A stretch of DNA of 64,000 bases from Candidatus Daviesbacteria bacterium (lineage in GTDB: Bacteria; Patescibacteriota; Microgenomatia; Daviesbacterales; UBA10151). Positions 49,391 through 63,994 of this stretch are shown here, piece after piece. Below the pieces are notes generated by a model that searched no databases, was not told where the DNA came from, and worked only from the letters and a program-made list of their open reading frames with translations. The DNA is taken from the NCBI GenBank assembly GCA_016176465.1, contig JACOXD010000010.1, positions 7,497-71,496 of the forward strand. The letters are read 5' to 3'. Each line of letters opens with the position of its first letter. The stretch's first letter is position 1. The position numbers and the translations under genes were made by a program.

Positions 49391-49663
49391 ATGGCATATA
49401 GACCAAAAGATACTCAAGAAAGAATTGTTCATAGGTTAAAAATAGCTAAAGGTCATTTAGAAAAGGTTATCAAGATGGTTGAGGATGACTGCTACTGCAT
49501 TGATGTTCTCCACCAATCTCAAGCTGTTCAAAAAGCATTAAGAGAAACAGATAACCTCATGCTAGAAAATCATCTTAAAACTTGCGCTATGGATGCCATA
49601 GGTAAAGGTAGAAAAGAAGAAGCAGTTGCTGAAGTGATCCAGGTATTTAAGAAAATGTCTTAA
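49391..49663 (+). CDS. csoR: Copper-sensing transcriptional repressor CsoR/RcnR family
   Basis: 90 aa; RL.RI.GH...V.KM.ED..YC.DVL.Q..AV..AL helix pattern with conserved Cys/His. Confidence 0.8.
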   Translation: MAYRPKDTQERIVHRLKIAKGHLEKVIKMVEDDCYCIDVLHQSQAVQKALRETDNLMLENHLKTCAMDAIGKGRKEEAVAEVIQVFKKMS

Positions 49664-49786: not shown

Positions 49787-50149
49787 ATGGAATTAGATAA
49801 GATTTTTGTAGCACTATTTAGTTTAGGAGGTATTCTATTTACTTATTGGTTTTTCTTAATGAGAAATGAAAAGGAGGTAGCTGTTACCTCTGATTCTATA
49901 GATATTACAGTTGAAGGTGGTTACCAACCAGAGGTTATATCTATTCCCAAAGGAAAAACTACCAAGCTTAATTTTCTCAGAAAAGATCCTTCCAGTTGCT
50001 TAGAAGAAGTAGTTTTAGGAGATTTTAAAGTTAGAAAAACACTACCTCTAAATCAAACTGTAACCATTCCGATTACTCCTCAAAAAGAGGGTGAATATGT
50101 TTTTAGCTGTGGAATGAACATGTTCCATGGAAAGATAAAGGTTGTCTAA
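49787..50149 (+). CDS. Membrane-anchored cupredoxin-like domain protein
   Basis: N-terminal TM, C-terminal FSCGMNMFHGKIKVV; paralogous to C-terminus of 62235-63275. Confidence 0.55.
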   Translation: MELDKIFVALFSLGGILFTYWFFLMRNEKEVAVTSDSIDITVEGGYQPEVISIPKGKTTKLNFLRKDPSSCLEEVVLGDFKVRKTLPLNQTVTIPITPQKEGEYVFSCGMNMFHGKIKVV

Positions 50150-50305: not shown

Positions 50306-52735
50306 ATGCCAGCAGTGAGCAAGCTCTCTCCTTTGGAGATAAAAAGAACATTTTCAGTACAAGGAATGCACTGTGCTTCCTGCGTGAGGCTTATTGAAAG
50401 AGCTTTGAGTAGAACTAATGGCATATCAGAGGCAAATGTTAATCTTGCAACTAACAAAGCCACCATCACTTATGATCCTAAAAGTGTTAATGATGAGCAA
50501 ATAGAATCTTCTGTATCCAATATAGGTTATAAAGCATTATTAGACGAGGAAGTTAAATCAGAAGATGATGAGAAAAAAGAAAAACAAAAAGAATTAAGAA
50601 AGTTACAGCATAAAGTTGGTATAAGTTTATTTTTAGGATTACTAATTTTATGGGGTTCTTTTCCGGGTTTAATGAATACTGCCCCAGCTATTTTAAGAAA
50701 TTTTTGGATACAGCTTCTCCTTGCTACCCCAGTTCAATTTTGGGCAGGTTTAGATTTTTATAGAGCTACTATTCCAGCATTAAAACATAGAACAGCTAAC
50801 ATGGACACTTTAGTGGCAATTGGTACAACTGTCGCTTATAGTTATTCAGCTTTTGTCACAGCCCTTCCTCAGGTAGTTAAAAGTATTGGTATTGATCCTC
50901 TCCCTTACTTTGATGTGGCAACTATAATTATTGGTTTAATACTTCTTGGTAGATATTTTGAGGCTAAAGCTAAGGCTGGTACGTCTGAAGCAATTAAAAA
51001 ACTAATAGGTTTGCAGGCAAAAACAGCCAGAGTTTTGAGACTCTCCTCTGTCATCTCGAACGATAGTGAGAGATCTGCAGATTCTAATCTAGAGATTTCT
51101 CTCCGCCAGCTGGCGGATCGAAATGACAAAAGTGAAACAAGTGATGAGAGCAAATATTTAGAAGTAGATATTCCTATAGATCAGGTGGTTATAGGAGATA
51201 TCATTAGAGTACGTCCTGGAGAAAAAATTCCAGTTGATGGAGAAATTTTGGAGGGAGAATCCTCAATTGATGAATCAATGATTACGGGAGAAAGTATTCC
51301 AGCTGACAAAACTAAGGGCGATACAGTCGTAGGTGCAACAATTAATAAATCAGGAACATTTACTTATAAAGCTACCAAAGTAGGACAAGAGACTATGCTT
51401 GCCCAAATTATTAAACTTGTTCAAGAAGCTCAGGGTTCAAAAGCTCCTATCCAAAGAATTGCAGATCTTATTTCCTCTTACTTTGTACCTATTGTCATAA
51501 TACTTGCTTTTGCTACCTTTGGTATCTGGTATGTATTTGGTCCAACCCCAGCTCTTTTATACGCACTTCTAAATACTGTAGCAGTTTTAATTATTGCCTG
51601 TCCTTGTGCCATGGGACTGGCTACACCAACAGCTATTATGGTAGGTACAGGAAAGGGTGCAGAGCATGGAATTTTAATTAAAGATGCAGAAAGTTTAGAA
51701 ACTGCCCACAAAATTAAGACGGTCATCTTTGATAAAACTGGAACTTTAACAAAAGGAAAACCAGAAGTGACAGATATCATTGCGAGGAGTGAAATGATGA
51801 AGCAATCTATAAAGAGAAGATCGCCACGCTTCGCTCGCGATGGCATACTTCGTTTGGCTGCTTCAATAGAAAAAGGCTCTGAACATTCTTTAGCTGAGGC
51901 AATAGTCCAAGAAGCTGAAAAACAAAATATTCAACTGGAACCTGTCACAAAGTTCAAAGCTATTGCAGGGCATGGAGTGGAAGGAGTTGTTGATGGAAAG
52001 CAAGTTTATTTTGGAAACCGAAAATTAATGGAAAGAGAAAAAGTAAGAATCCTAAAACTTGTTCAGGATGACATAGAAAGGTTAGAAAGTGAAGGTAAAA
52101 CTGTAATGATATTAGCAACCTCCTCCCGTCATTCTGAGCGAAGCGAAGAATCTCAACTTATTGGTCTTGTGGCTGTAGCAGATACCGTCAAAGATACTGC
52201 TAAAGAAGGTGTAAAAGCTTTGCAGAAAATGGGTATAGAAGTTGTTATGATCACTGGAGATAACACAAGAAGTGCTAAAGCTATTGCAGATCAGGTAGGT
52301 ATTAAAAGAGTTTTGGCAGAAGTACTACCAGATCAAAAAGAAGCTGAAGTAAGGAAGATTCAAGCGGAGGGCAAAAAAGTGGCAATGGTTGGAGATGGGA
52401 TTAATGATGCACCCGCCTTAGCAGCAGCAGATATTGGAATAGCTATGGGAAGTGGTACGGATGTGGCAATTGAGGCAGCGGATATTACCTTAATAAATAA
52501 GGACCTTAAATCTGTAGCTCAAGCTATTAACCTCTCCAAAAAGACAATGAGAACTATAAAATTAAATCTTTTTTGGGCATTTGGCTATAATGTTTCACTG
52601 ATTCCTGTAGCAATGGGAGTTTTATATCCTTTTTGGGGAATATTGTTAAATCCAATCTTTGCCTCAGTTGCTATGGCCACAAGTTCTATATCAGTTGTTG
52701 GAAACTCATTACTTTTAAAAAGAGTAAGGATTTAA
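50306..52735 (+). CDS. copA: Copper-translocating P1B-type ATPase
   Basis: N-terminal HMA GMHCASC, CPC motif [26 protein letters not shown]; contains at least three in-frame low-complexity/palindromic inserts. Confidence 0.9.
51040..51140. repeat. ~100-bp in-frame palindromic insert in copA (includes perfect 14-bp palindrome CCGCCAGCTGGCGG) encoding ~35 aa [36 protein letters not shown]
   Basis: Segment has no counterpart in canonical CopA between TM4 and the actuator domain. Confidence 0.5.
51816..51846. repeat. In-frame GC-rich repeat (reverse orientation, CGCTTCGCTCGCG) in copA N-domain encoding ~[11 protein letters not shown]
   Basis: Shares core with recX insert. Confidence 0.5.
52128..52154. 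repeat. In-frame repeat GTCATTCTGAGCGAAGCGAAGAATCTC in copA encoding [10 protein letters not shown]
   Basis: 29/32 identical to 56521-56552; GTCATTC head shared with element at 297. Confidence 0.6.
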
Positions 52736-53834: not shown

Positions 53835-53873
53835 TTTGACATCTGAATGCAGGGATACTACACTTAGTAGTAG
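53835..53873 (+). promoter_or_regulatory. Promoter TTGACA-17-TACTAC with operator palindrome TACTAC-ACTTA-GTAGTA (copy 1)
   Basis: Same palindrome at 58048 and 61442, each ending at a start codon. Confidence 0.55.
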
Positions 53874-54942: not shown

Positions 54943-55506
54943 ATGTTAGCGTTATTTTTATCAATAATTACACAGAGAAAATTTTTCTTAGTAGCCTTGA
55001 TTGTTTTTGTGGTATATATTCTAATTTATTTAGCTGCAGTAGGACATTTGATCTTCACATCCCGCATGGAGCCAGCTTATTCATTTTTAGAAGTAAAATT
55101 CTTGACAAACTGGCAACAACTTCTACTGCGACAAAGGTCACCTTTTTTGTTTGAAGCAATTGGGGCAATCTATATAGGTCCCAATATCAAACTATTTCTC
55201 TCAATTCCTAACTTGATACTTGCTTCAGTGTTAGGATTTCTTGTCGGATCTAACTTTGCCTTAAGTTATTATAACTTTAAGAGATTAGGGTTATCAGGTG
55301 GAAAAGGAGCAGTTGCACTTTTGGGAACCATTCCGGCTATTGTTTCGGGAAGTGTTTGTTGTGTTCCTACTCTGATTCTGGTGCTAGGATTACAATTAAC
55401 AGCTACTTTAGCCACAGCGTGGTCTTTTTTTATTCCACTTTCAATAATCCTGCTTATTTTAAGTCTAGTATGGTCTGTAAAAAGAATTGAAACTGGAAGA
55501 TTGTGA
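54943..55506 (+). CDS. Membrane protein with MerT-like intramembrane Cys-Cys motif (GSVCCVPTLILVLG)
   Basis: 4-5 TM; CC pair in TM resembling MerT TM1 (TCCLGPLVL). Confidence 0.4.
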   Translation: MLALFLSIITQRKFFLVALIVFVVYILIYLAAVGHLIFTSRMEPAYSFLEVKFLTNWQQLLLRQRSPFLFEAIGAIYIGPNIKLFLSIPNLILASVLGFLVGSNFALSYYNFKRLGLSGGKGAVALLGTIPAIVSGSVCCVPTLILVLGLQLTATLATAWSFFIPLSIILLILSLVWSVKRIETGRL

Positions 55507-55522: not shown

Positions 55523-55771
55523 ATGGCAAAAGTAAAAGTTTATTCAATAACAACGTGTCCATATTGTCATATGCTCAAAGAATATTTAAAGGAGAAGAAT
55601 GTAGCTTTTGAAGATATAGTTCTTGACTACAGTCCCGATAAGGCAGTCGAGGCTATTCACATATGTCAGTCAATGGGTGTCCCTTGCACACATATCGTAA
55701 AGGACGATGGAAAGGAAGTTGCCATCTTGGGATTTGACAAAGAAGCAATAGATCGCGCACTCGGACTGTAA
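55523..55771 (+). CDS. Glutaredoxin/NrdH-like redoxin (CPYC)
   Basis: 82 aa; VYSITTCPYCHMLKEYL. Confidence 0.75.
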   Translation: MAKVKVYSITTCPYCHMLKEYLKEKNVAFEDIVLDYSPDKAVEAIHICQSMGVPCTHIVKDDGKEVAILGFDKEAIDRALGL

Positions 55772-55804
55772 TGGAGGGAGGTGCAAAAGGTTATTAATAA
55801 AAAC

Positions 55805-57193
55805 ATGAATAACAAATATGATGTTATTGTAATTGGGGGAGGATCGGCAGGGTTTTCTGTTTTGGAGCAGATTGCCCATAAAGGCTTAAAGATTGCCCTG
55901 GTGGAAAATAGAAAATTGGGAGGATCTTGTCCTAATTTTGCCTGTGTACCCTCTAAAGCTTTAATCAAATGTGCTGAAGTTCTACACACAGCTTTGAATG
56001 CTGATAAATTTGGTATAAATGTTTCTAATATAGGATTTGACTGGAAAAGAGTACAAGAATTTAGAGCAGGTAAGGTAGCTAATACTGCTGCTGCAGAGTC
56101 TGAACAAGATTTAAAAGAAAAAGAGGTTGATCTTATTTGGGGCACTGCCAAGTTTATTTCAGCTTCTGAGATTGAAGTAGATGGGAAGATTTATTCAGCT
56201 GATAAGTTTGCCATTACCACCGGCTCAAGGCCTTTGGTTTTACCAATTGATGGTTTGGAAGAGATTGGTTTTTTAGATTCTGATCAAGGTCTGCAAATAG
56301 ATAAATTGCCTAAATCCTTAACTATACTAGGTGCTGGGCCTGTGGGAATTGAAATAGCTCAGATGTTTGCCAGATTTGGGGTCAAAGTAGCAGTGATCAA
56401 TAGAGGTGGACAGATACTTGGTAGAGAAGAACCAGAAGTGGCAAATCTCGTTCAGGGATTTTTAGAAAAAGAGGGAGTGGAGTTTTTATTAAATGCTCAA
56501 GTTAAAAAAGTGATGCTTCAGCGTCATCCTGAGCGCAGCGAAGGATCTCAAAATCTGAAGCTACTGGAGATAGAAGTCAGTGGGCAGAAAGGAACAATGG
56601 AAGTGGAGCAAATTCTGGTTGCTCCAGGTAGGATTCCCAATATTGACATGCTTGATCTTAAAAAAGCTGGAGTGAAAACTTATGAGAGAGGAATTGTGGT
56701 TGATGAGTACATGCAGACCTCACAGCCTCACATCTATTCTGCTGGAGATGTGGCAGGAATCATGCTTTTTACCCATGCAGCATCTTATGAGGGCTTTATT
56801 ATTGGACAAAACCTCTTGGGCAACAAAATGGAGGTAGATCATAAGGTGATACCAAGAGGAACGTTTTCTGATCCGGAGGTAGGTAGCGTGGGAATAATGG
56901 AAAAAGAGGCCAGGGACAAGGGTTTGAAAGTACAAACTGCTTTGATGGATTATACAGGAGGGAGAGGAGATATCCAGGATGACCCCCTAGGATTAACTAA
57001 GGTGACTGTTGATGCTAAAACCAGACAAATCCTTGGGGCATCAGTAGTGGGTAGAGGCGCTGCTGAGTTTGTGCATATGATAGCCATGGCCATGCATCAT
57101 AAAATTAAAGTTGATGATTTAGATACTCTTGTTTATGCCTTTCCCACTTATGCAGAAGGGTTAGCTGGAATTACTTCCTATCTTAAGGATTAG
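55805..57193 (+). CDS. Class I pyridine nucleotide-disulfide oxidoreductase (MerA/Lpd-like; lacks NmerA and C-terminal Cys pair)
   Basis: GGGSAGF, redox CxxxxC GGSCPNFACVPSK, HPxE-type dimer interface; ATG 55805 preferred over GTG 55781; carries in-frame repeat at 56514-56559. Confidence 0.8.
   Translation: MNNKYDVIVIGGGSAGFSVLEQIAHKGLKIALVENRKLGGSCPNFACVPSKALIKCAEVLHTALNADKFGINVSNIGFDWKRVQEFRAGKVANTAAAESEQDLKEKEVDLIWGTAKFISASEIEVDGKIYSADKFAITTGSRPLVLPIDGLEEIGFLDSDQGLQIDKLPKSLTILGAGPVGIEIAQMFARFGVKVAVINRGGQILGREEPEVANLVQGFLEKEGVEFLLNAQVKKVMLQRHPERSEGSQNLKLLEIEVSGQKGTMEVEQILVAPGRIPNIDMLDLKKAGVKTYERGIVVDEYMQTSQPHIYSAGDVAGIMLFTHAASYEGFIIGQNLLGNKMEVDHKVIPRGTFSDPEVGSVGIMEKEARDKGLKVQTALMDYTGGRGDIQDDPLGLTKVTVDAKTRQILGASVVGRGAAEFVHMIAMAMHHKIKVDDLDTLVYAFPTYAEGLAGITSYLKD
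56514..56559. repeat. In-frame repeat GCTTCAG-CGTCATCCTGAGCGCAGCGAAGGATCTCAAAAT-CTGAAGC encoding QRHPERSEGSQNLK
   Basis: Flanked by 7-bp inverted repeat; homologous to copA insert at 52128. Confidence 0.6.
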
Positions 57194-58047: not shown

Positions 58048-58067
58048 TACTACACTAAGTAGTAGTA
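58048..58067 (+). promoter_or_regulatory. Operator palindrome TACTAC-ACTAA-GTAGTA (copy 2) ending 2 nt before blaI-like start
   Basis: Read directly; nested larger palindrome ACTTAGT...ACTAAGT. Confidence 0.55.
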
Positions 58068-58069
58068 AT

Positions 58070-58462
58070 ATGGAAAAACAGCAAAAGGTTGGTAAAGTGT
58101 TAGGTGAGTTAGAATCAGAAGTGATGGAGATAATTTGGCAATCTAAAATGCCAATTTCTGTAAGAACTGTTACTCAAATCTTGCAAACAAAGCGCCAGAT
58201 TGCTTATACAACAGTCATGACCATTATGGGGAGATTAACTGATAAAGGTTTGCTTAAGCGTACAGAATCTGGTAAAGCATATATTTACAGATCAGTCTAT
58301 TCAAAAGAAAAGTTTCTTACCAGAGTATCCCGCCAGATTATTAAAAATTTTGTTGCTAATTTTGGTGACGGCGCAGTAGCTCATTTTGCAGCGGAAGTGG
58401 AAAAACTAGAACCTTCTAAGAGGAAAGACTTAACTAAATTATTAAAGGAGGTAAGAAAATAG
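58070..58462 (+). CDS. BlaI/MecI/CopY family winged-helix repressor (no C-terminal metal-binding Cys motif)
   Basis: LGELESEVMEIIW....VR.V..IL...R.IAYTTVMT...RL..KGLL. Confidence 0.8.
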   Translation: MEKQQKVGKVLGELESEVMEIIWQSKMPISVRTVTQILQTKRQIAYTTVMTIMGRLTDKGLLKRTESGKAYIYRSVYSKEKFLTRVSRQIIKNFVANFGDGAVAHFAAEVEKLEPSKRKDLTKLLKEVRK

Positions 58463-58463
58463 C

Positions 58464-59477
58464 ATGGGTGCTAACAAAGCCTTCTGCATGCTCCTACTCT
58501 CTTTTGTTGTTGCTTTAGTTGGTTTGGGTACTGTGTTTTTTAAAACAGTTCCGCTCCTTCTTTCTCATGCAGTTTATGTTTGCCAAGAGACTTTCTCTAA
58601 TATTCTTTTTGGCATCTCGCATTCTGTTCCTCTTGTTCTAATTACTTTAGTAATCATGGTTTTACTTATTGGTCTTGTAACTTTATTGATACAAGTTTTA
58701 AAAACTAGAAATTATCTTAAGAAGCATATGAGAGAAAGAGTACCCATCCCCTCTAGTTTGATAGAAATAACCAAAGAACTTGGCTTAAATGATAGCGTTG
58801 ATGTTGTTAAAGATAGAAGTAAATTTTCTTTCTGTTATGGATTGATTCACCCTAGAATTTGTTTAAGTACAGGTCTTTTAAGATCATTAAATACAAGAGA
58901 ACTTAAAGCAGTGATACTTCATGAGAGTTACCATGTTAAAAATCGGGATCCACTTAAAATAATCCTTGGCAAAACAGCATCTTTAATGTTCTTCTTTATT
59001 CCATTGCTAAAAGATATTCAAAACTTCTATGCTTTATCAAAAGAGATAGCTGCAGATAAACTTGTGGTCGGTAATGGATATAGACATTCCCTAATTTCCG
59101 TTCTTTCAAAGCTTTTAGTGGCTGGCTCATCTAAATTCAGTGGCGTAGCAGCACTAGCTAGTTTAGATGATTTAGAAAGAAGGATACTGTTGCTCACAGG
59201 TAATCAGAAAAGATCAATATTTAAACCCTCACTGCTCAACATATCAATGTCGGCTTTTGTAGTTTTGTTTTCCCTGGCACTTATGAATACCCCAGCTTAT
59301 GCAGTTTCTGATCATGAAGGGTCTATGGAAAGCTCAATGTTTACTGCGAAGCAGGAAGTTTACTTCATTTGTCCTTTTGGGGATAAATGTGCGCTGTCTT
59401 GCAAGGCAAAGGAAGAGGAGGGTGGAAATTACAGTCAAGACTTAATGTATACACCGATGCATTACACACCAAAATGA
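58464..59477 (+). CDS. BlaR1-like M56 family membrane metalloprotease lacking penicillin-binding sensor domain; Cys-rich C-terminal tail
   Basis: HEXXH HESYHVKNRD; 4 TM; C-terminal CPFGDKCALSC. Confidence 0.7.
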   Translation: MGANKAFCMLLLSFVVALVGLGTVFFKTVPLLLSHAVYVCQETFSNILFGISHSVPLVLITLVIMVLLIGLVTLLIQVLKTRNYLKKHMRERVPIPSSLIEITKELGLNDSVDVVKDRSKFSFCYGLIHPRICLSTGLLRSLNTRELKAVILHESYHVKNRDPLKIILGKTASLMFFFIPLLKDIQNFYALSKEIAADKLVVGNGYRHSLISVLSKLLVAGSSKFSGVAALASLDDLERRILLLTGNQKRSIFKPSLLNISMSAFVVLFSLALMNTPAYAVSDHEGSMESSMFTAKQEVYFICPFGDKCALSCKAKEEEGGNYSQDLMYTPMHYTPK

Positions 59478-60442
59478 ACAGTAAATTAGTTTATATCATA
59501 GTTGCGGTTTTGCTTTTAGGAGGAGTAGTTTTCTTTGCTCAAAAACAAGCGGGTGCTCCGAAACTTAAATCTGAAACAGCACAAAGCTTACCTGCAACAA
59601 CGCAAGAAGAATCTGTTAGGGAAAATTCAACTTATGGTCATGTACACGCTTTAATTTCTAATCCTCAAGATAACAGCCTATTGTTGGGTACTCATGAAGG
59701 TTTGTTTAAGAGTGCAGATGGAGGGAAAACTTTTCAGAAAGTGGGTGTTAAAGGTGAAGTTAATGCAATGGATTTCATGAACTTTGCGTATGACCAGAAT
59801 AATAAAATCATTTATGCTGGTGGACATGATTTGGGAGTTGTTAAAAGCACTGATGGTGGAGTAACTTGGGCAAAAACAGATTCAGGGATTCAAGGTACGG
59901 ATATTCATGCTTTGGCTATGAACCCCCTTGATACTAACAGGTTATATGTTTTCTCAGTAGGTAATGGAGTTTATGGAACTAAAGATGGGGCAAAAAGTTG
60001 GTATAGAATTGATGATGGACCAGCGAACCCATCTGTAGTAGCTTTTGGATATATGGCAACTCCCTCAAGTATGGACCGCGGTATGAAAACTGATAAAACT
60101 ACTAATATTGGCTACCTTTGGGCAGGAACTGGAGGAGGGTTATATAGCTCATTTGCTTGTTTCTGTGGCTGGACTAAAACATCAGGTGTAACAGATAGAG
60201 CCACTATTTATACACTTGCTCCTGATCCAATAGACAAAAGTAGTATGCTTGCAGGAACCAAAGATGGTATTTACAAAACGACTGATGAGGGGAGAAATTT
60301 TACTAAGATAAGTGATATTAAAGACATTGCTGCCCTTAATTTTAATACATCTAATCCTAAAACAATTTATGCTGCTACTGCCGATGGTGCGATTTATAGA
60401 AGTGATGATGAAGGTAAGAATTGGAGTAAAGTGAATGAATAA
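59474..60442 (+). CDS. Ycf48-like/BNR-repeat beta-propeller protein, membrane-anchored
   Basis: Repeated S.DGG.TW / T.DG..W blades; ATG overlaps upstream stop (ATGA). Confidence 0.55.
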   Translation: MNSKLVYIIVAVLLLGGVVFFAQKQAGAPKLKSETAQSLPATTQEESVRENSTYGHVHALISNPQDNSLLLGTHEGLFKSADGGKTFQKVGVKGEVNAMDFMNFAYDQNNKIIYAGGHDLGVVKSTDGGVTWAKTDSGIQGTDIHALAMNPLDTNRLYVFSVGNGVYGTKDGAKSWYRIDDGPANPSVVAFGYMATPSSMDRGMKTDKTTNIGYLWAGTGGGLYSSFACFCGWTKTSGVTDRATIYTLAPDPIDKSSMLAGTKDGIYKTTDEGRNFTKISDIKDIAALNFNTSNPKTIYAATADGAIYRSDDEGKNWSKVNE

Positions 60443-60671
60443 GCAAAGCTTGTCTTTTGCTGTCGCAAAACGTAAGTTTTTTAACAGCTGTAGGCGCTGT
60501 TTAAACCCCTGGATAATTGCCTTAATTACTGTTGTAGTGGTTGGATTATTAATTTTTCTTCCTATTTTAGGAGTAGCAACTTTGATAGCAGCTCTTCCTC
60601 TGGTAGGTTGTACTGTAATGTGTGGTGCAATGGCTCTTATGATGCGGGATCACAAAAAAGATAAAAGTTAA
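60435..60671 (+). CDS. Small membrane protein with intramembrane Cys cluster (GCTVMCG)
   Basis: ORF, 2 TM. Confidence 0.4.
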   Translation: MNKQSLSFAVAKRKFFNSCRRCLNPWIIALITVVVVGLLIFLPILGVATLIAALPLVGCTVMCGAMALMMRDHKKDKS

Positions 60672-60673
60672 GT

Positions 60674-61414
60674 ATGAGATTGATTTTCCTGCCCATTGTT
60701 GTATTTATTATCTTAGCTGTAACGCTTTTATCGCAAAATTTATTTCCAAAAAATACACTCGAGTCAACTATTGCAAATTGGAATGATGGAACAGATGCTT
60801 TTTATCAGCAGGTTTTAAAAAGTGATGGTGATTGGGTAGATCATGCAGGTGAGGCAGTTTTTGATAACTATCCTGTAAAAAGTATTTCAAAGCTGGAAAC
60901 AGAAAATATTTTGGCACAAGCAAGGCAGCCACAACCACCAGTTTTGGGACTGCATACTGCACCTGACGGAGCAGAAAAATGGATTGAGATAGACCTATCT
61001 AATCTTAAACTTTATGCTTGGGAAGGAAACCGCAAAGTTTATGAATTTTTAATATCAACAGGCCGTCCTGGCTATAACACCCCTACAGGTGAGTTTAGGG
61101 TTTGGAGAAAGGTACTATCACAAGCCTATAAAGGCGGCTCAAGAGAAAGGGGCGATTACTACTACTTACCTAATGTTCCCTTCTCTTTATTTTTCGGTGG
61201 CGGAAATGTTTCTAACTGGAAAGGTTATGCTATCCATGGAGCATATTGGCACAGTGACTTTGGTATAAAAAACAGGAGTAGTGGGTGTGTAAATGTGAAA
61301 CCTGAAGAAGCAGGACTTTTGTACCAATGGGCTGGTCCTGCTATGCCTGCTGGGACAGGAGTTTTAAATTCAACTCCTGATAACCCTGGTGTAAGAGTAA
61401 TCGTACATGATTAA
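60674..61414 (+). CDS. L,D-transpeptidase (YkuD domain)
   Basis: YAIHGAYWHSDFG...SSGCVNV catalytic His/Cys motif. Confidence 0.75.
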   Translation: MRLIFLPIVVFIILAVTLLSQNLFPKNTLESTIANWNDGTDAFYQQVLKSDGDWVDHAGEAVFDNYPVKSISKLETENILAQARQPQPPVLGLHTAPDGAEKWIEIDLSNLKLYAWEGNRKVYEFLISTGRPGYNTPTGEFRVWRKVLSQAYKGGSRERGDYYYLPNVPFSLFFGGGNVSNWKGYAIHGAYWHSDFGIKNRSSGCVNVKPEEAGLLYQWAGPAMPAGTGVLNSTPDNPGVRVIVHD

Positions 61415-61421
61415 TTTCCCC

Positions 61422-61461
61422 TTGACAAGTTAAAGTTTATCTACTACAGTAAGTAGTAGTA
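61422..61461 (+). promoter_or_regulatory. Promoter TTGACA-17-TACAGT with operator palindrome TACTAC-AGTAA-GTAGTA (copy 3) abutting start codon
   Basis: Read directly. Confidence 0.55.
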
Positions 61462-62231
61462 TGGATAAACAGTCAGGTATTCGAATCAACCTTTTTATTT
61501 CAACCCCAATAGCTATTTTAATTGGGTCTGTGATAATCGCTTTAGCTATTCTGGTAAATGGTGGAATCATCAAATTTAAAGGATCAGTTGCTACTAAATC
61601 ACCAACTACTCAAGCAGCTCAAGCTCCAACTGCAACAGCCCCACAAGCTCCCCAACCAGAACCTCAAGCTGGCCCTGTAGAACCCCTAAAAGATGAAGAT
61701 CATGTCAGGGGTGAAAGAAAAGCTAGGATTTTACTTTTTGAATACTCAGATTTAGAGTGTCCCTTCTGTAAAAGATTTCATCCCACTGCTAAACAAATAG
61801 TAGATACCTACAAAGGAGAAGTGGCTTGGGTATATAGGCATTTTCCTTTGGATCAAATCCATTCTAAAGCAGATAAAGAAGCAGAGGCTATAGAGTGTGC
61901 AAATGAGTTGGGTGGTGAAGATGGGTTTTGGAAGATGACAGACAAGATATTTGAGGTAACACCTTCTAATAATGGTTTAAATTTGGAAGATCTGCCAAAA
62001 CTGGCAGGGGAAGTAGGGCTAAATCAAGCTACATTTAAGTCATGTTTAGATAGTGGTAAATACACAGCTCATGTAGAAGAGGATTATCAGGGTGGAATAA
62101 AAGCTGGTATTACAGGTACACCTGGCAATATTCTACTTGATACTAAACTCAATAAGACTAAATTAATACCTGGTGCACTACCCTTTGAGCAATTTAAACA
62201 AGCAATAGATGCTATGCTTAAGGAAGCATAA
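61461..62231 (+). CDS. DsbA-family thiol:disulfide oxidoreductase (CPFC), membrane-anchored
   Basis: FEYSDLECPFCKRFH thioredoxin-fold active site. Confidence 0.75.
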   Translation: MDKQSGIRINLFISTPIAILIGSVIIALAILVNGGIIKFKGSVATKSPTTQAAQAPTATAPQAPQPEPQAGPVEPLKDEDHVRGERKARILLFEYSDLECPFCKRFHPTAKQIVDTYKGEVAWVYRHFPLDQIHSKADKEAEAIECANELGGEDGFWKMTDKIFEVTPSNNGLNLEDLPKLAGEVGLNQATFKSCLDSGKYTAHVEEDYQGGIKAGITGTPGNILLDTKLNKTKLIPGALPFEQFKQAIDAMLKEA

Positions 62232-62234
62232 CAA

Positions 62235-63275
62235 ATGGATCTTTGGTTAATATTTCTAACTGGTTTAACTGTTGGTGGACTTACCTGTCTAGCTGTGCAG
62301 GGGGGTCTTCTCGCCTCTACTATTGCTGCAAGGGAAGAGGAAGATATAGACGCAGGAAGCAGAAGAAAACATACTATATTCCCCACTGCAGCCTTTTTAA
62401 CTACTAAGCTTATTGCCTATACGATTTTAGGCTTTCTTTTAGGACTATTCGGACAAACCCTACAGATCTCTGGTAGTGCTCAAACTGTGATGCAGCTTCT
62501 AGCTGGAGGATACATGATAGCTGTGGCACTAAATCTTCTTAATGTTCACCCAATATTCAGATACGCCATTATTCAACCCCCAAGATTTTTAACCAGATTA
62601 ATTAGAAATCAAACTAAATCTAAAGATATTTTTGCTCCAGCCTTGCTTGGTGTTATGACCATCTTTATTCCTTGTGGAACAACTCTAGCTATGGAAGCAT
62701 TAGCAATCTCTTCAGGTAAACCATTTCTCGGCTCAATGATTATGGGAGCATTTACTTTAGGCACTATGCCACTATTTTTTGGTATTGGGTTCTTAACTTC
62801 TTTGCTGGGGGATACTTTCAGAGCCAAATTTTTCAAAATAGCAGGAGTTTTGGTGTTATATCTAGGTATTATCTCATTTAATGGGGCACTAGTTGCTAGC
62901 GGTTCTCCTATTACTTTACAGTCAATTGGACAAGCTTTACCAATTGAGATTGATTTATCTGGAGGGCAAGCTGCAGCATCTGCTGATTCAAATGTAAAAC
63001 TCGTTGGTGGAGTTCAAACTGTCGATATGTCTGTTTTCCCCACCAGCTATAGTCCAAACTACATTCAGGTAAAAGCAGGCACTCCTGTTAGGTTGAATTT
63101 AACTCCATCAGGTGGTTTAGGATGTACTTCATTTTTTAGAATTCCAAAACTGAGAATTACTAAAAAATTGGCTCAAGGCGCAACTGAAACTGTTGAGTTT
63201 ACCCCTCAAAGTCCTGGAAGATTAACCTTTACCTGTTCAATGGGAATGTATACAGGGACAATAGAGGTTATATAA
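62235..63275 (+). CDS. DsbD/CcdA-like (DsbD_2) membrane protein with intramembrane Cys pair fused to C-terminal cupredoxin-like domain
   Basis: TM Cys in GGLTCLAVQGG and FIPCGTTLA; C-terminal FTCSMGMYTGTIEVI. Confidence 0.55.
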   Translation: MDLWLIFLTGLTVGGLTCLAVQGGLLASTIAAREEEDIDAGSRRKHTIFPTAAFLTTKLIAYTILGFLLGLFGQTLQISGSAQTVMQLLAGGYMIAVALNLLNVHPIFRYAIIQPPRFLTRLIRNQTKSKDIFAPALLGVMTIFIPCGTTLAMEALAISSGKPFLGSMIMGAFTLGTMPLFFGIGFLTSLLGDTFRAKFFKIAGVLVLYLGIISFNGALVASGSPITLQSIGQALPIEIDLSGGQAAASADSNVKLVGGVQTVDMSVFPTSYSPNYIQVKAGTPVRLNLTPSGGLGCTSFFRIPKLRITKKLAQGATETVEFTPQSPGRLTFTCSMGMYTGTIEVI

Positions 63276-63320
63276 GCGGAGCTTGATACTTCGTATTGAG
63301 GCGAAGCCTCTAATTTCATT

Positions 63321-63557
63321 ATGAGTAAAATAGTAAAGAAAAAATTAAAGATTGATGGGATGCACTGCAGCAGCTGTGCCATGAATATAGAGTTTGATTT
63401 AGAGGATGTGGAAGGTATTAAATCGGCTAAAGCTAGCCTGGTAAAAGAGGAATGCGAAGTAGAATTTGATGAAGAAAAAGTTAATGAGCAAATGATTATC
63501 CAAACTATCCAGAAAACTGGGTACCAAGCAAGGTTACAAGAAGAGTCTAAGCAGTAA
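63321..63557 (+). CDS. copZ: Heavy-metal-associated (HMA) copper chaperone
   Basis: GMHCSSC motif, 78 aa ferredoxin-like. Confidence 0.8.
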   Translation: MSKIVKKKLKIDGMHCSSCAMNIEFDLEDVEGIKSAKASLVKEECEVEFDEEKVNEQMIIQTIQKTGYQARLQEESKQ

Positions 63558-63611
63558 TAGGGTTTCTGATTCCTACTGCGCACCAGTTCCTGACAAGCTT
63601 TTCTTTTGCAA

Positions 63612-63639
63612 AGCAAGTATTAATCCAAGTCCCGCAGCT
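63612..63639. repeat. Right 28-bp direct repeat AGCAAGTATTAATCCAAGTCCCGCAGCT (att-like)
   Basis: 27/28 identical to 49278-49305. Confidence 0.65.
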
Positions 63640-63673
63640 TTGAACTGAAACCATCCCTTGTGGGACATAAAAC

Positions 63674-63994
63674 TTAGTTGTCATGAACGTTTAATGAAGC
63701 TCCAGCAGCATCAACTTCAACTTCCCTATCCTTAATAGTGAACTTTCCATCCTGTTGTATTGCTATTCTTCCTCTTGTATTTACGACATTTATTCTTTCA
63801 ATAACTACTCTGTGAGGGTTTTTAGCAGAATTTGGCTTATATCCTAAATCAATGTTATAGCACATAGCTTGAGGTATACTATGTCTTGTGTAAACCTCAT
63901 TTTTAAATAACTCCATAGATCCTCGTTGAGTAAATACCCATTCAATTTCTTCCCATGTTTTTCTGCCTCGTAATACTTCAACAATATCTCTCAA
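63674..63994 (-). CDS. Hypothetical protein; 5' end may lie beyond window
   Basis: ORF only. Confidence 0.3.
   Translation of the reverse strand: MRDIVEVLRGRKTWEEIEWVFTQRGSMELFKNEVYTRHSIPQAMCYNIDLGYKPNSAKNPHRVVIERINVVNTRGRIAIQQDGKFTIKDREVEVDAAGASLNVHDN

Follow-up and report, generated by a model that had tools for sequence, protein, structure and literature searches.

A DsbD_2-CupA-like fusion protein encoded beside copZ: a possible Cu(I) relay in bacterial copper operons

Introduction

What is the function of a membrane protein that joins a DsbD-like six-helix domain to a cupredoxin-like domain and is encoded next to a copper chaperone? The question is raised by a 64,000-nucleotide stretch of DNA from a Candidatus Daviesbacteria bacterium (NCBI GenBank assembly GCA_016176465.1, contig JACOXD010000010.1, positions 7,497 to 71,496 of the forward strand) that we call the window. 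In it, the gene for such a fusion protein lies between a dsbA-like gene and copZ. A preliminary description of the locus had taken the three genes as one unit and the fusion as a disulfide-reductant conduit attached to a copper-binding fold. We find that proteins of the fusion family are widespread in copper operons, carry a wrong name and are uncharacterised, and that they join two known modules in a new combination and a new location. The reading that we favour, with a probability of about 0.45, is that the protein acts as a chaperone-coupled relay in which Cu(I) would pass from CopZ to Cys and Met residues in the membrane and on to an outer CupA-like domain, beside the CopA ATPase.

Results

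The fusion protein and its two partners

The fusion gene (62235-63275, + strand) encodes a protein 346 amino acids (aa) long with a DsbD_2 and a Cupredoxin_1 domain. The N-terminal part (62235-62900, + strand; residues 1-222) is a DsbD_2-type membrane domain of six hydrophobic helices that matches PF13386 over residues 6-212 (E 4.5e-31, 108.7 bits); Cys18 lies in transmembrane helix 1 and Cys147 where helix 4 is broken. This is followed by a flexible linker (62901-62999, + strand; residues 223-255) that appears as a block of low predicted local distance difference test scores (pLDDT; 74, then 51) in an AlphaFold2 model of the fusion (pLDDT 90, predicted template modelling score 0.83). The C-terminal part (63000-63275, + strand; residues 256-346) matches Cupredoxin_1 (PF13473) over residues 260-343 (E 5.4e-13) and has FTCSMGMYTGTIEVI as its C-terminal end. 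These matches establish the identities of the domains. A protein 100% identical to the fusion is on record in a Candidatus Daviesbacteria genome, where it is labelled 'sulfite exporter TauE/SafE family protein'. We rejected this identity because no TauE-type Pfam or NCBIfam model matched the fusion at E <= 0.01; the name is found only as the label of homologues.

Downstream of the fusion gene and separated from it by 45 nt is copZ (63321-63557, + strand), which is predicted to encode a 78-aa cytoplasmic Cu(I) chaperone of the CopZ type. The protein has an HMA domain (PF00403, E 3e-15) and matches the NCBIfam CopZ models at 1.5e-18, which is under their cut-offs. The Cys residues of its GMHCSSC motif are invariant in 74 of 74 homologues, and a sequence scan for a transmembrane helix, a signal or a hydrophobic segment found none. 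It shares with CopZ/Atx1 proteins the HMA fold, the GMxCxxC motif and a soluble, cytoplasmic state, the last by prediction.

Upstream, with a spacing of 3 nt, is the dsbA-like gene (61461-62231, + strand), predicted to encode a membrane-anchored, extracytoplasmic thiol-disulfide oxidoreductase of 256 aa. This protein matches Thioredoxin_4 (PF13462, E 9e-21) and DSBA (PF01323, E 3e-15) in Pfam, and 4n30 (E 1.7e-20) as well as ScsC and BdbD (1e-7 to 1e-4) in the PDB. It has a single N-terminal transmembrane helix (residues 19-37) with Lys/Arg on the N side, then a Pro/Gln/Ala-rich linker, a CPFC active-site motif (residues 100-103) and a further conserved Cys pair (C146/C195). Its Cys are invariant or nearly so among 14 homologues, with CPFC found in all 14. 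The thioredoxin fold, the CxxC motif, the inserted helical domain and the exported or anchored state that mark the DsbA family are all found in this protein. The three open reading frames (ORFs), all on the + strand and all with Pfam support, lie at 61461-63557, where the preliminary description had placed them.

The CupA-type domain and its paralogue

The best solved relative of the fused domain is CupA from Streptococcus pneumoniae (PDB 2mry/4f2e), found at E 8e-5 with the single sequence and at E 6.3e-18 with a 51-sequence profile. The model superposes on CupA with a TM-score of 0.90 and a root-mean-square deviation of 1.1 Å (Foldseek). The next PDB match is the N-terminal metal-binding domain of pneumococcal CopA (4f2f, E 6.8e-15), likewise of the cupredoxin type, and the Foldseek matches also include CuA domains and nitrosocyanin; the Greek-key beta-sandwich of the cupredoxin fold is present. 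The equivalents of C74, C111, M113 and M115 of CupA are C297, C334, M336 and M338 in the fusion, which are predicted to be ligands. CupA binds two Cu(I), one at a high-affinity site, S1, formed by C74 and C111, and one at a site, S2, formed by C74, M113 and M115 (PMC5646241; PMC7558416). CupA also reduces Cu(II) in vitro via C74/C111 (PMC5646241).

The cupredoxin domain is duplicated in this island, as had been noted before. A cupA homologue (49787-50149, + strand) encodes a 120-aa protein with a transmembrane anchor and a cupredoxin fold (Cupredoxin_1, E 1.2e-22), the C-terminal end of which is FSCGMNMFHGKIKVV. The protein is a paralogue of the fused domain, with 28% identity over 86 aa (E 1e-11), and matches pneumococcal CupA (2mry/4f2e) at E 1.4e-21 with all four ligands aligned (C71, C108, M110 and M112). 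Its single helix (residues 6-24) is like the anchor of CupA in form, and the orientation of this helix is weakly indicated. The gene is located between a CsoR gene (49391-49663) and copA (50306-52735), giving a csoR-cupA-copA operon.

The preliminary description had named His, Cys, His and Met as the copper ligands to look for and had held that a domain lacking them would be a fold that binds no metal. In the fused domain, His is absent from both type-1 ligand positions: Cys297 occupies the upstream position and the loop C334-S-M-G-M-Y-T-G has no His. The 49787 paralogue likewise has no His at these positions. We therefore rejected a type-1 (blue) copper site. The loss of these ligands was indeed found, but what had been concluded from such a loss was wrong, since the set that is present instead belongs to a recognised Cu(I)-binding type. 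Judged by their residues (Cys, Cys and CxMxM), the fused domain and its paralogue are predicted to be CupA-type Cu(I) domains, not blue-copper sites.

A separate observation concerns CopA. The protein encoded at 50306-52735 has a classical HMA N terminus, not one of the cupredoxin type, so that a rule by which a cupredoxin chaperone pairs with a cupredoxin metal-binding domain fails here.

Conservation and topology of the membrane domain

We examined residue conservation in an alignment of 129 representatives of at least 300 aa, clustered at 50% identity. The four Cys are kept almost throughout (C18 of helix 1 in 125, C147 of helix 4 in 128, C297 in 125 and C334 in 124), as are the two Met of the outer domain (M336 in 115 and M338 in 117). 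Within the membrane domain, conservation extends to M94 (115), M153 (92), M170 (95) and H105 (87), and the domain has invariant Gly/Pro as well. Seven of the 129 relatives have HCxxMCG in helix 1 together with MPCGPLQAM in helix 4, which amounts to an intramembrane His/Cys/Met cluster. In the AlphaFold2 model, the break in helix 4 falls at Cys147, between helical segments 133-144 and 148-160.

The distribution of charge gives the orientation. Loops 1-2, 3-4 and 5-6 have a mean of 11.1 Lys+Arg versus 0.33 for loops 2-3 and 4-5 together with the N terminus, and each of the 51 sequences compared shows this bias. The positive-inside rule then predicts that both ends of the protein are outside the cell, the CupA-like domain with them. 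Relatives with an N-terminal extension point the same way. Exactly one extra helix is present in 32 of 34 such representatives, and 17 of the 18 extensions that carry a CxxC (HMA-type) motif have exactly one helix between the motif and DsbD_2, usually with Lys/Arg before the helix. HMA-DsbD_2-Cupredoxin_1 variants were among the 10 relatives that we scanned for domains. An N-terminal HMA without a signal stays in the cytoplasm and the helix count is odd, so the HMA and the cupredoxin domain would be on opposite sides of the membrane. The topology prediction that the preliminary description had called for thus puts the cupredoxin domain outside, and this agrees with the link to extracytoplasmic copper handling that was proposed there.

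The Cys in helices 1 and 4, the six-helix core and the outside termini are together the signature of CcdA/DsbD proteins. PF02683 (DsbD_TM) was not listed for the window fusion at E <= 0.01, and some homologues do match it. The solved CcdA structure 5vkv gives a weak match to the fusion over helices 5-6 only (E 0.057). Rv2963 of M. tuberculosis (a permease of the RicR regulon) and UreH of Bacillus (a nickel permease) may also be members of PF13386, and neither serves as evidence here.

Distribution of the family

The fusion family is found in at least several hundred species, culturable actinobacteria and Deinococcus among them. Among 1.84 billion cluster representatives searched with the fusion, 4930 clusters matched at E <= 1e-3, of which 447 also passed E <= 1e-30. 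When one genome for each GTDB species was scanned with a pattern, at least 585 relatives were confirmed, a few of which may be CupA-only proteins. These searches supply the database distribution that had been called for. The best 80 of the 585 or more relatives, each with essentially full query coverage, were used to compare loci, the ORFs of which were searched with the window proteins; individual loci are given below by label (L002 and so on). By record label, the 80 are mostly Patescibacteria, plus Chloroflexota/Anaerolineae and one Sulfotelmatobacter, and many carry only the label 'uncultured Gammaproteobacteria/Pseudomonadales'. Full-length copies on plasmids, identified by tblastn, come from Candidatus Chlorohelix, Deinococcus, Mycolicibacterium, Tsukamurella, Streptomyces and Acetoanaerobium.

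Gene neighbourhood in related loci

A CopZ gene is located directly downstream of the fusion gene in 75 of the 80 loci, and the two ORFs often abut or overlap. A CopA-like ATPase is encoded within 5 kb in 72 loci, usually immediately upstream, and CsoR within the same distance in 40. Twelve loci have the dsbA-like gene and 68 lack it, BlaI/BlaR are present in 9, and CupA homologues with the motif CGMNM(F/Y)HG in 26. The commonest operon order is csoR-(cupA)-copA-fusion-copZ. The order in the window (blaI-blaR-...-dsbA-like-fusion-copZ) is a minority variant that also occurs in L002, L026, L029, L042, L050 and L051. The fusion-CopZ pair is kept without an adjacent copA in loci such as the window, L041, L065 and L075. 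Because CopZ accompanies the fusion in 75 loci versus 12 for the dsbA-like gene, the conserved functional unit is the fusion plus CopZ and the dsbA-like gene is an optional addition. What was described as one unit of three genes holds for the window, where the genes are adjacent behind one operator, but the trio is not conserved, and an obligatory unit of three is ruled out by these counts.

Plasmids of culturable hosts have similar arrangements. On the Mycolicibacterium aubagnense plasmid the order is P-type ATPase, fusion and HMA protein, and on the plasmid of Deinococcus sp. QL22 the fusion is followed by an HMA protein; merB and a gene of the MerR family lie 3-4 kb away from these two. The pair has the locus tags G6N59_RS29465/RS29470 in Mycolicibacterium aubagnense (plasmid pJCM15296) and M1R55_RS18340/RS18335 in Deinococcus sp. 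QL22, and the fusion and the gene after it are SMIR_RS42365/RS42370 in Streptomyces mirabilis. In Streptomyces mirabilis the fusion gene is followed by a small gene annotated 'cation transporter', beside a P-type ATPase. This last locus (L083; plasmid pI of strain P16B-1, 353168-366172) is a heavy-metal island around the fusion and the small downstream gene, and it also holds two annotated CcdA genes, a peroxiredoxin-family protein, a BlaI/M56 pair and CopC. It has the same regulatory and redox themes as the window, in a culturable host.

Three loci with HMA-fused relatives were informative as to whether the fused HMA replaces CopZ. One has the order csoR-fusion-copA without a separate copZ, and the other two have a separate downstream HMA gene, with a multicopper oxidase gene ahead in one of them. 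We rejected this 'Rosetta-stone' idea since a separate HMA gene is still present in two of the three. The HMA fusion is nonetheless informative for topology and, by analogy, for a likeness to CopA. A metagenomic contig (L085, 187-4136) encodes a multicopper oxidase, then a fusion with two HMA domains ahead of DsbD_2 and cupredoxin, and then an HMA protein, so that a Cu(I) oxidase gene lies directly upstream of a member of the family.

Promoter, operator and the putative BlaI regulon

The window has three exact copies of a 17-bp palindrome, TACTAC-N5-GTAGTA. One copy, TACTACAGTAAGTAGTA, is located at 61442-61458 (+ strand), where it lies over the -10 hexamer and ends 2 nt before the ATG of the dsbA-like gene. 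The second (58048-58064, + strand) is 5 nt before blaI and the third (53856-53872, + strand) precedes an operon encoding DUF3179, a Grx-like protein and a MerA-like flavoprotein. There are seven further matches with 2 mismatches each; the same scan of shuffled sequences gave a mean of 1.6 matches at <=2 mismatches. The classical cop/bla box, TACAnnTGTA, has zero matches in the window. The palindrome is also found in 8 related loci, 7 of them with blaI/blaR, just before blaI and/or the dsbA-like or fusion gene. These results support a putative three-operon regulon defined by a shared BlaI-type operator. The single operator of this type that had been assigned to the dsbA-like unit is confirmed as an exact palindrome, which it shares with blaI and the third operon.

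Ahead of the dsbA-like/fusion/copZ unit is a promoter-like site, TTGACA-17 nt-TACAGT (61422-61450, + strand), with 10 of 12 matches. It is the best sigma-70-like site in 61300-63900, and such sites are no commoner there than in shuffles; the case for it is that it adjoins the operator, not the site counts. The operators at 61442 and 58048 lie 2-5 nt before start codons with the -10 hexamer inside the palindrome (61442-61463 and 58048-58072), and no Shine-Dalgarno sequence is visible before the dsbA-like gene or blaI. This spacing and the lack of a Shine-Dalgarno sequence suggest that the mRNAs would be leaderless or nearly so.

The repressor gene (58070-58462, + strand) encodes a protein of the BlaI/CopY family (PF03965, E 3.8e-28, 98.6 bits). 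It is followed by a gene (58464-59477, + strand) for a short BlaR1-like M56 protease of 337 aa (PF05569, E 2.5e-16, 60.1 bits). The protease has no penicillin-binding/transpeptidase domain, and BlaR1 models match roughly positions 94-300 of 585. Its HExxH motif is found in 10 of 10 homologues, and an acidic tail after the last helix carries a conserved Cx5Cx3C motif (C303, C309 and C313, kept in 7-9 of 10). The BlaI/BlaR1-like pair may be a sensor of copper or thiol stress in the envelope. An ORF at 59387-60442 shares 91 nt with the end of the blaR-like gene; its true start is probably an internal Met before a hydrophobic, signal-like segment (MNSKLVYIIVAVLLLGG).

The predicted regulon comprises genes for DUF3179, a membrane protein with a CC pair, the Grx-like protein, the MerA-like flavoprotein, DUF1684, a BNR/F510_1955-like protein, a 78-aa membrane protein with a GCTVMCG motif, an L,D-transpeptidase and the dsbA-like/fusion/copZ unit. 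The Grx-like protein (55523-55771) is of the YruB type with a CPYC motif, and its gene directly precedes that of the flavoprotein behind the same operator. The flavoprotein (55781-57193) is a disulfide reductase closest to MerA (TIGR02053) and has no HMA domain; a similar gene precedes blaI in L002 and L026. Its score of 381 bits is below the MerA cut-off (454) and the C-terminal Cys pair is missing, so we rejected identity with MerA.

Two small membrane proteins of the regulon have no family match above curated cut-offs. One (54943-55506) is 187 aa long, with four helices, intramembrane Cys and an SVCCVP motif. The other (60435-60671), of 78 aa, has two helices with GCTVMCG within the membrane, and its type recurs in L026, L042 and L050. 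The L,D-transpeptidase (YkuD; 60674-61414) is encoded in a BlaI-controlled operon just upstream of the dsbA-like unit. Only L026 has a homologue so placed, with the 78-aa gene on one side and the dsbA-like gene on the other; homologues lie elsewhere in four other loci. Copper inhibits Cys enzymes such as L,D-transpeptidases, so an inducible copy would make sense.

Discussion

A possible Cu(I) relay and its rivals

What might the fusion do with a CupA-type domain predicted to be outside the cell, two conserved Cys in the membrane and CopZ on the other side? In the reading that we favour, the CxxC motif of cytoplasmic CopZ, or of a fused HMA, would hand over Cu(I), through an exchange of ligands, to a mid-membrane thiolate/thioether site formed by Cys18 of helix 1 and Cys147 at the break in helix 4, flanked by Met94, Met153, Met170 and His105. 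From there Cu(I) would pass to the tethered outer bis-thiolate/Met2 site of Cys297, Cys334, Met336 and Met338, and the system would work beside the CopA ATPase in copper detoxification. We infer metal binding, and transfer between the three stations, from the CupA-type outer domain, the conserved Cys/Met, the HMA on the opposite side and the linkage to CopZ and CopA. The combination of an N-terminal HMA with an adjacent CopZ is the layout of a CopA-type transporter, which also favours a relay. As to direction, we favour outward movement of Cu(I) because the fusion gene is co-regulated with copA under CsoR or, in the window, is placed under a BlaI/BlaR1-like envelope sensor; inward movement, as in MerP-MerT, would be less likely. 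The window unit would have moved out of the copA operon and been placed, with the optional dsbA-like gene, under a BlaI-type repressor.

Several points weigh against a relay, and some of them speak for the conduit of the preliminary description. Cys in helices 1 and 4 are the exact catalytic signature of the CcdA/DsbD electron conduits, and some homologues match PF02683. A CcdA/ScsB-like protein would carry two electrons outward from cytoplasmic thiols via the membrane Cys pair, either to keep Cys297/Cys334 (and the dsbA-like protein, if present) reduced for Cu(I) or to reduce Cu(II) to Cu(I). Such a function would fit the homology to the DsbD superfamily, the outward Cys-pair domain on a membrane conduit, which mirrors the layout of DsbD beta-gamma or ScsB, the likeness of the dsbA-like partner in the same unit to ScsC, and the Grx-like protein and flavoprotein disulfide reductase in the same BlaI regulon. 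It would fit as well the reduction of Cu(II) by CupA via C74/C111 in vitro (PMC5646241) and the induction of envelope thioredoxin-like proteins in copper stimulons elsewhere (PMC3140484). A relay also lacks an obvious energetic rationale, being a passive second exporter beside ATP-driven CopA, and the adjacency of CopZ could simply serve CopA. A search of the PDB with the membrane-only profile and model gave zero matches to any solved structure, and our literature search, which left subscription journals largely outside, found no experimental work on the fusion family; the one relevant item was the regulon inference of PMC4938975.

Electron transfer is the main rival, which we nonetheless consider less likely than a relay. 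Of 80 loci, 68 lack the dsbA-like gene and 75 have CopZ, and a cytoplasmic N-terminal HMA with an adjacent CopZ is the hallmark of a metal transporter, not of a thioredoxin-fed conduit. Disulfide exchange has no use for the conserved Met/His of the membrane domain or for the HCxxMCG variants, and helix 1 lacks the Pro of the CcdA-type PC motif. In the island on the Streptomyces mirabilis plasmid, genuine CcdA genes with a thioredoxin-fold partner lie near the fusion, suggesting that the role of conduit is already filled there. The term disulfide-reductant conduit was one reading of DsbD_2 and is not established by a match to PF13386 instead of PF02683 and to CcdA over helices 5-6 at E 0.057. 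The earlier interpretation is partly supported; the adjacency of CopZ, the cytoplasmic HMA fusions and the conserved membrane Met/His point at least as strongly to metal transfer.

It is improbable that the fusion is only a surface sink in which the outer CupA-like domain captures Cu(I) released by CopA, as CusF/CopL do, with the membrane domain as an anchor or a scaffold for docking CopA. The usual position of the gene directly after copA and a high-affinity Cu(I) fold predicted to be outside would suit this. A membrane domain of six helices, in which two intramembrane Cys as well as Gly/Pro residues are invariant and Met are conserved, goes far beyond an anchor, for which CupA uses one helix, and the fusion-CopZ pair persists without an adjacent copA in several loci, the window among them. 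We give as little credence to uptake of Hg(II), Ag(I) or Cu(I) on the Mer plan, with the outer domain as MerP, the membrane Cys pair as MerT, CopZ as NmerA and the flavoprotein as the reductase. The three stations are formally equal to the Mer relay, a MerA-like flavoprotein (TIGR02053, 381 bits) stands behind the same operator, and merB and a MerR-family gene accompany the pair on the Deinococcus plasmid. This flavoprotein falls short of the MerA cut-off and of its C-terminal Cys pair, the neighbourhood is one of CopA-like ATPases (72 of 80 loci) and CsoR (40 of 80 within 5 kb), and CxMxM is a Cu(I)-type site.

Returning to the Cu(I) relay, a broader proposal can be made, which we hold only tentatively. 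The DsbD fold may have been recruited as an ATP-independent conduit for Cu(I), leading from CopZ through an intramembrane Cys pair to an extracellular CupA-type acceptor. Such proteins would be a new class of copper translocator that forms a core part of copper operons in Patescibacteria and Chloroflexota, is carried on plasmids of actinobacteria and Deinococcus and, in some lineages, has come under a BlaR1-like protease with a Cys-tail sensor for copper or thiol stress in the envelope.

If the fusion is a relay, the copper efflux operons of at least several hundred species hold a second translocator, driven by a chaperone and not by ATP, under a wrong name. A CupA-type Cu(I) site would then function outside the cell and a DsbD fold would carry metal rather than electrons. 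If electrons are carried instead, the fusion would be the first conduit for reductant that serves specifically an extracellular copper-binding thiol site, which bears on how envelope thiols, such as those of L,D-transpeptidases, are protected from copper in cells without a periplasm. The culturable hosts (Mycolicibacterium aubagnense, Tsukamurella, Streptomyces mirabilis and Deinococcus) make the question directly testable. The annotation 'sulfite exporter TauE/SafE family protein' should at least be replaced.

Comparison with known systems

The fused domain is like CupA of Streptococcus pneumoniae in its fold, its Cys...Cys-x-Met-x-Met ligand set, its membrane tether and its place in copper efflux operons. 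The layout differs: CupA is cytoplasmic on a single N-terminal helix, whereas the fused domain is C-terminal to the six helices of DsbD_2 and predicted to be outside. The hosts differ as well, the window being from a bacterium of the candidate phyla radiation whereas CupA has been described from, and reported as limited to, a few streptococci (PMC7558416).

COG2836, which has HMA and DsbD_2 and was inferred to be a member of the CsoR regulon in gut Firmicutes, shares with the fusion the family of the membrane domain, the link to HMA and the setting in CsoR-controlled copper operons (PMC4938975). The evidence there is regulon inference only, and COG2836 was not described with a C-terminal CupA-type domain (PMC4938975).

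With CcdA, DsbD and ScsB the fusion has in common the superfamily, the invariant Cys of helices 1 and 4, the outside termini and an outer, tethered domain with a Cys pair, and the window has, in a copper context, a DsbA-like partner that resembles ScsC of the ScsB-ScsC pair. In contrast to these proteins, the window fusion matches PF13386 and not PF02683 (which some homologues do match), its tethered domain has a metallochaperone fold in place of a thioredoxin or Ig fold, and its conserved neighbour is CopZ, not a thioredoxin-fold protein.

The regulatory genes resemble CopY/BlaI-BlaR1 systems: the repressor belongs to PF03965, its M56 partner has HExxH, and the operator is a palindrome that covers the -10 hexamer. 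They differ in that the repressor, judged from its translation, lacks the C-terminal Cys motif of CopY, the protease has a short Cx5Cx3C tail instead of the penicillin-binding sensor of BlaR1, and the operator is TACTAC-N5-GTAGTA, not TACAnnTGTA.

The MerP-MerT-NmerA relay, including the MerTP fusions, consists of a metal-binding domain outside, a pair of Cys in the membrane and an HMA in the cytoplasm, and the outer domain is sometimes fused to the membrane protein. The membrane and outer domains of the fusion have no homology to MerT or MerP, and the metal context of the family is copper, with CsoR and CopA. What the two have in common, by analogy, is three thiol stations in line, and CopZ of the window matches the MerTP model.

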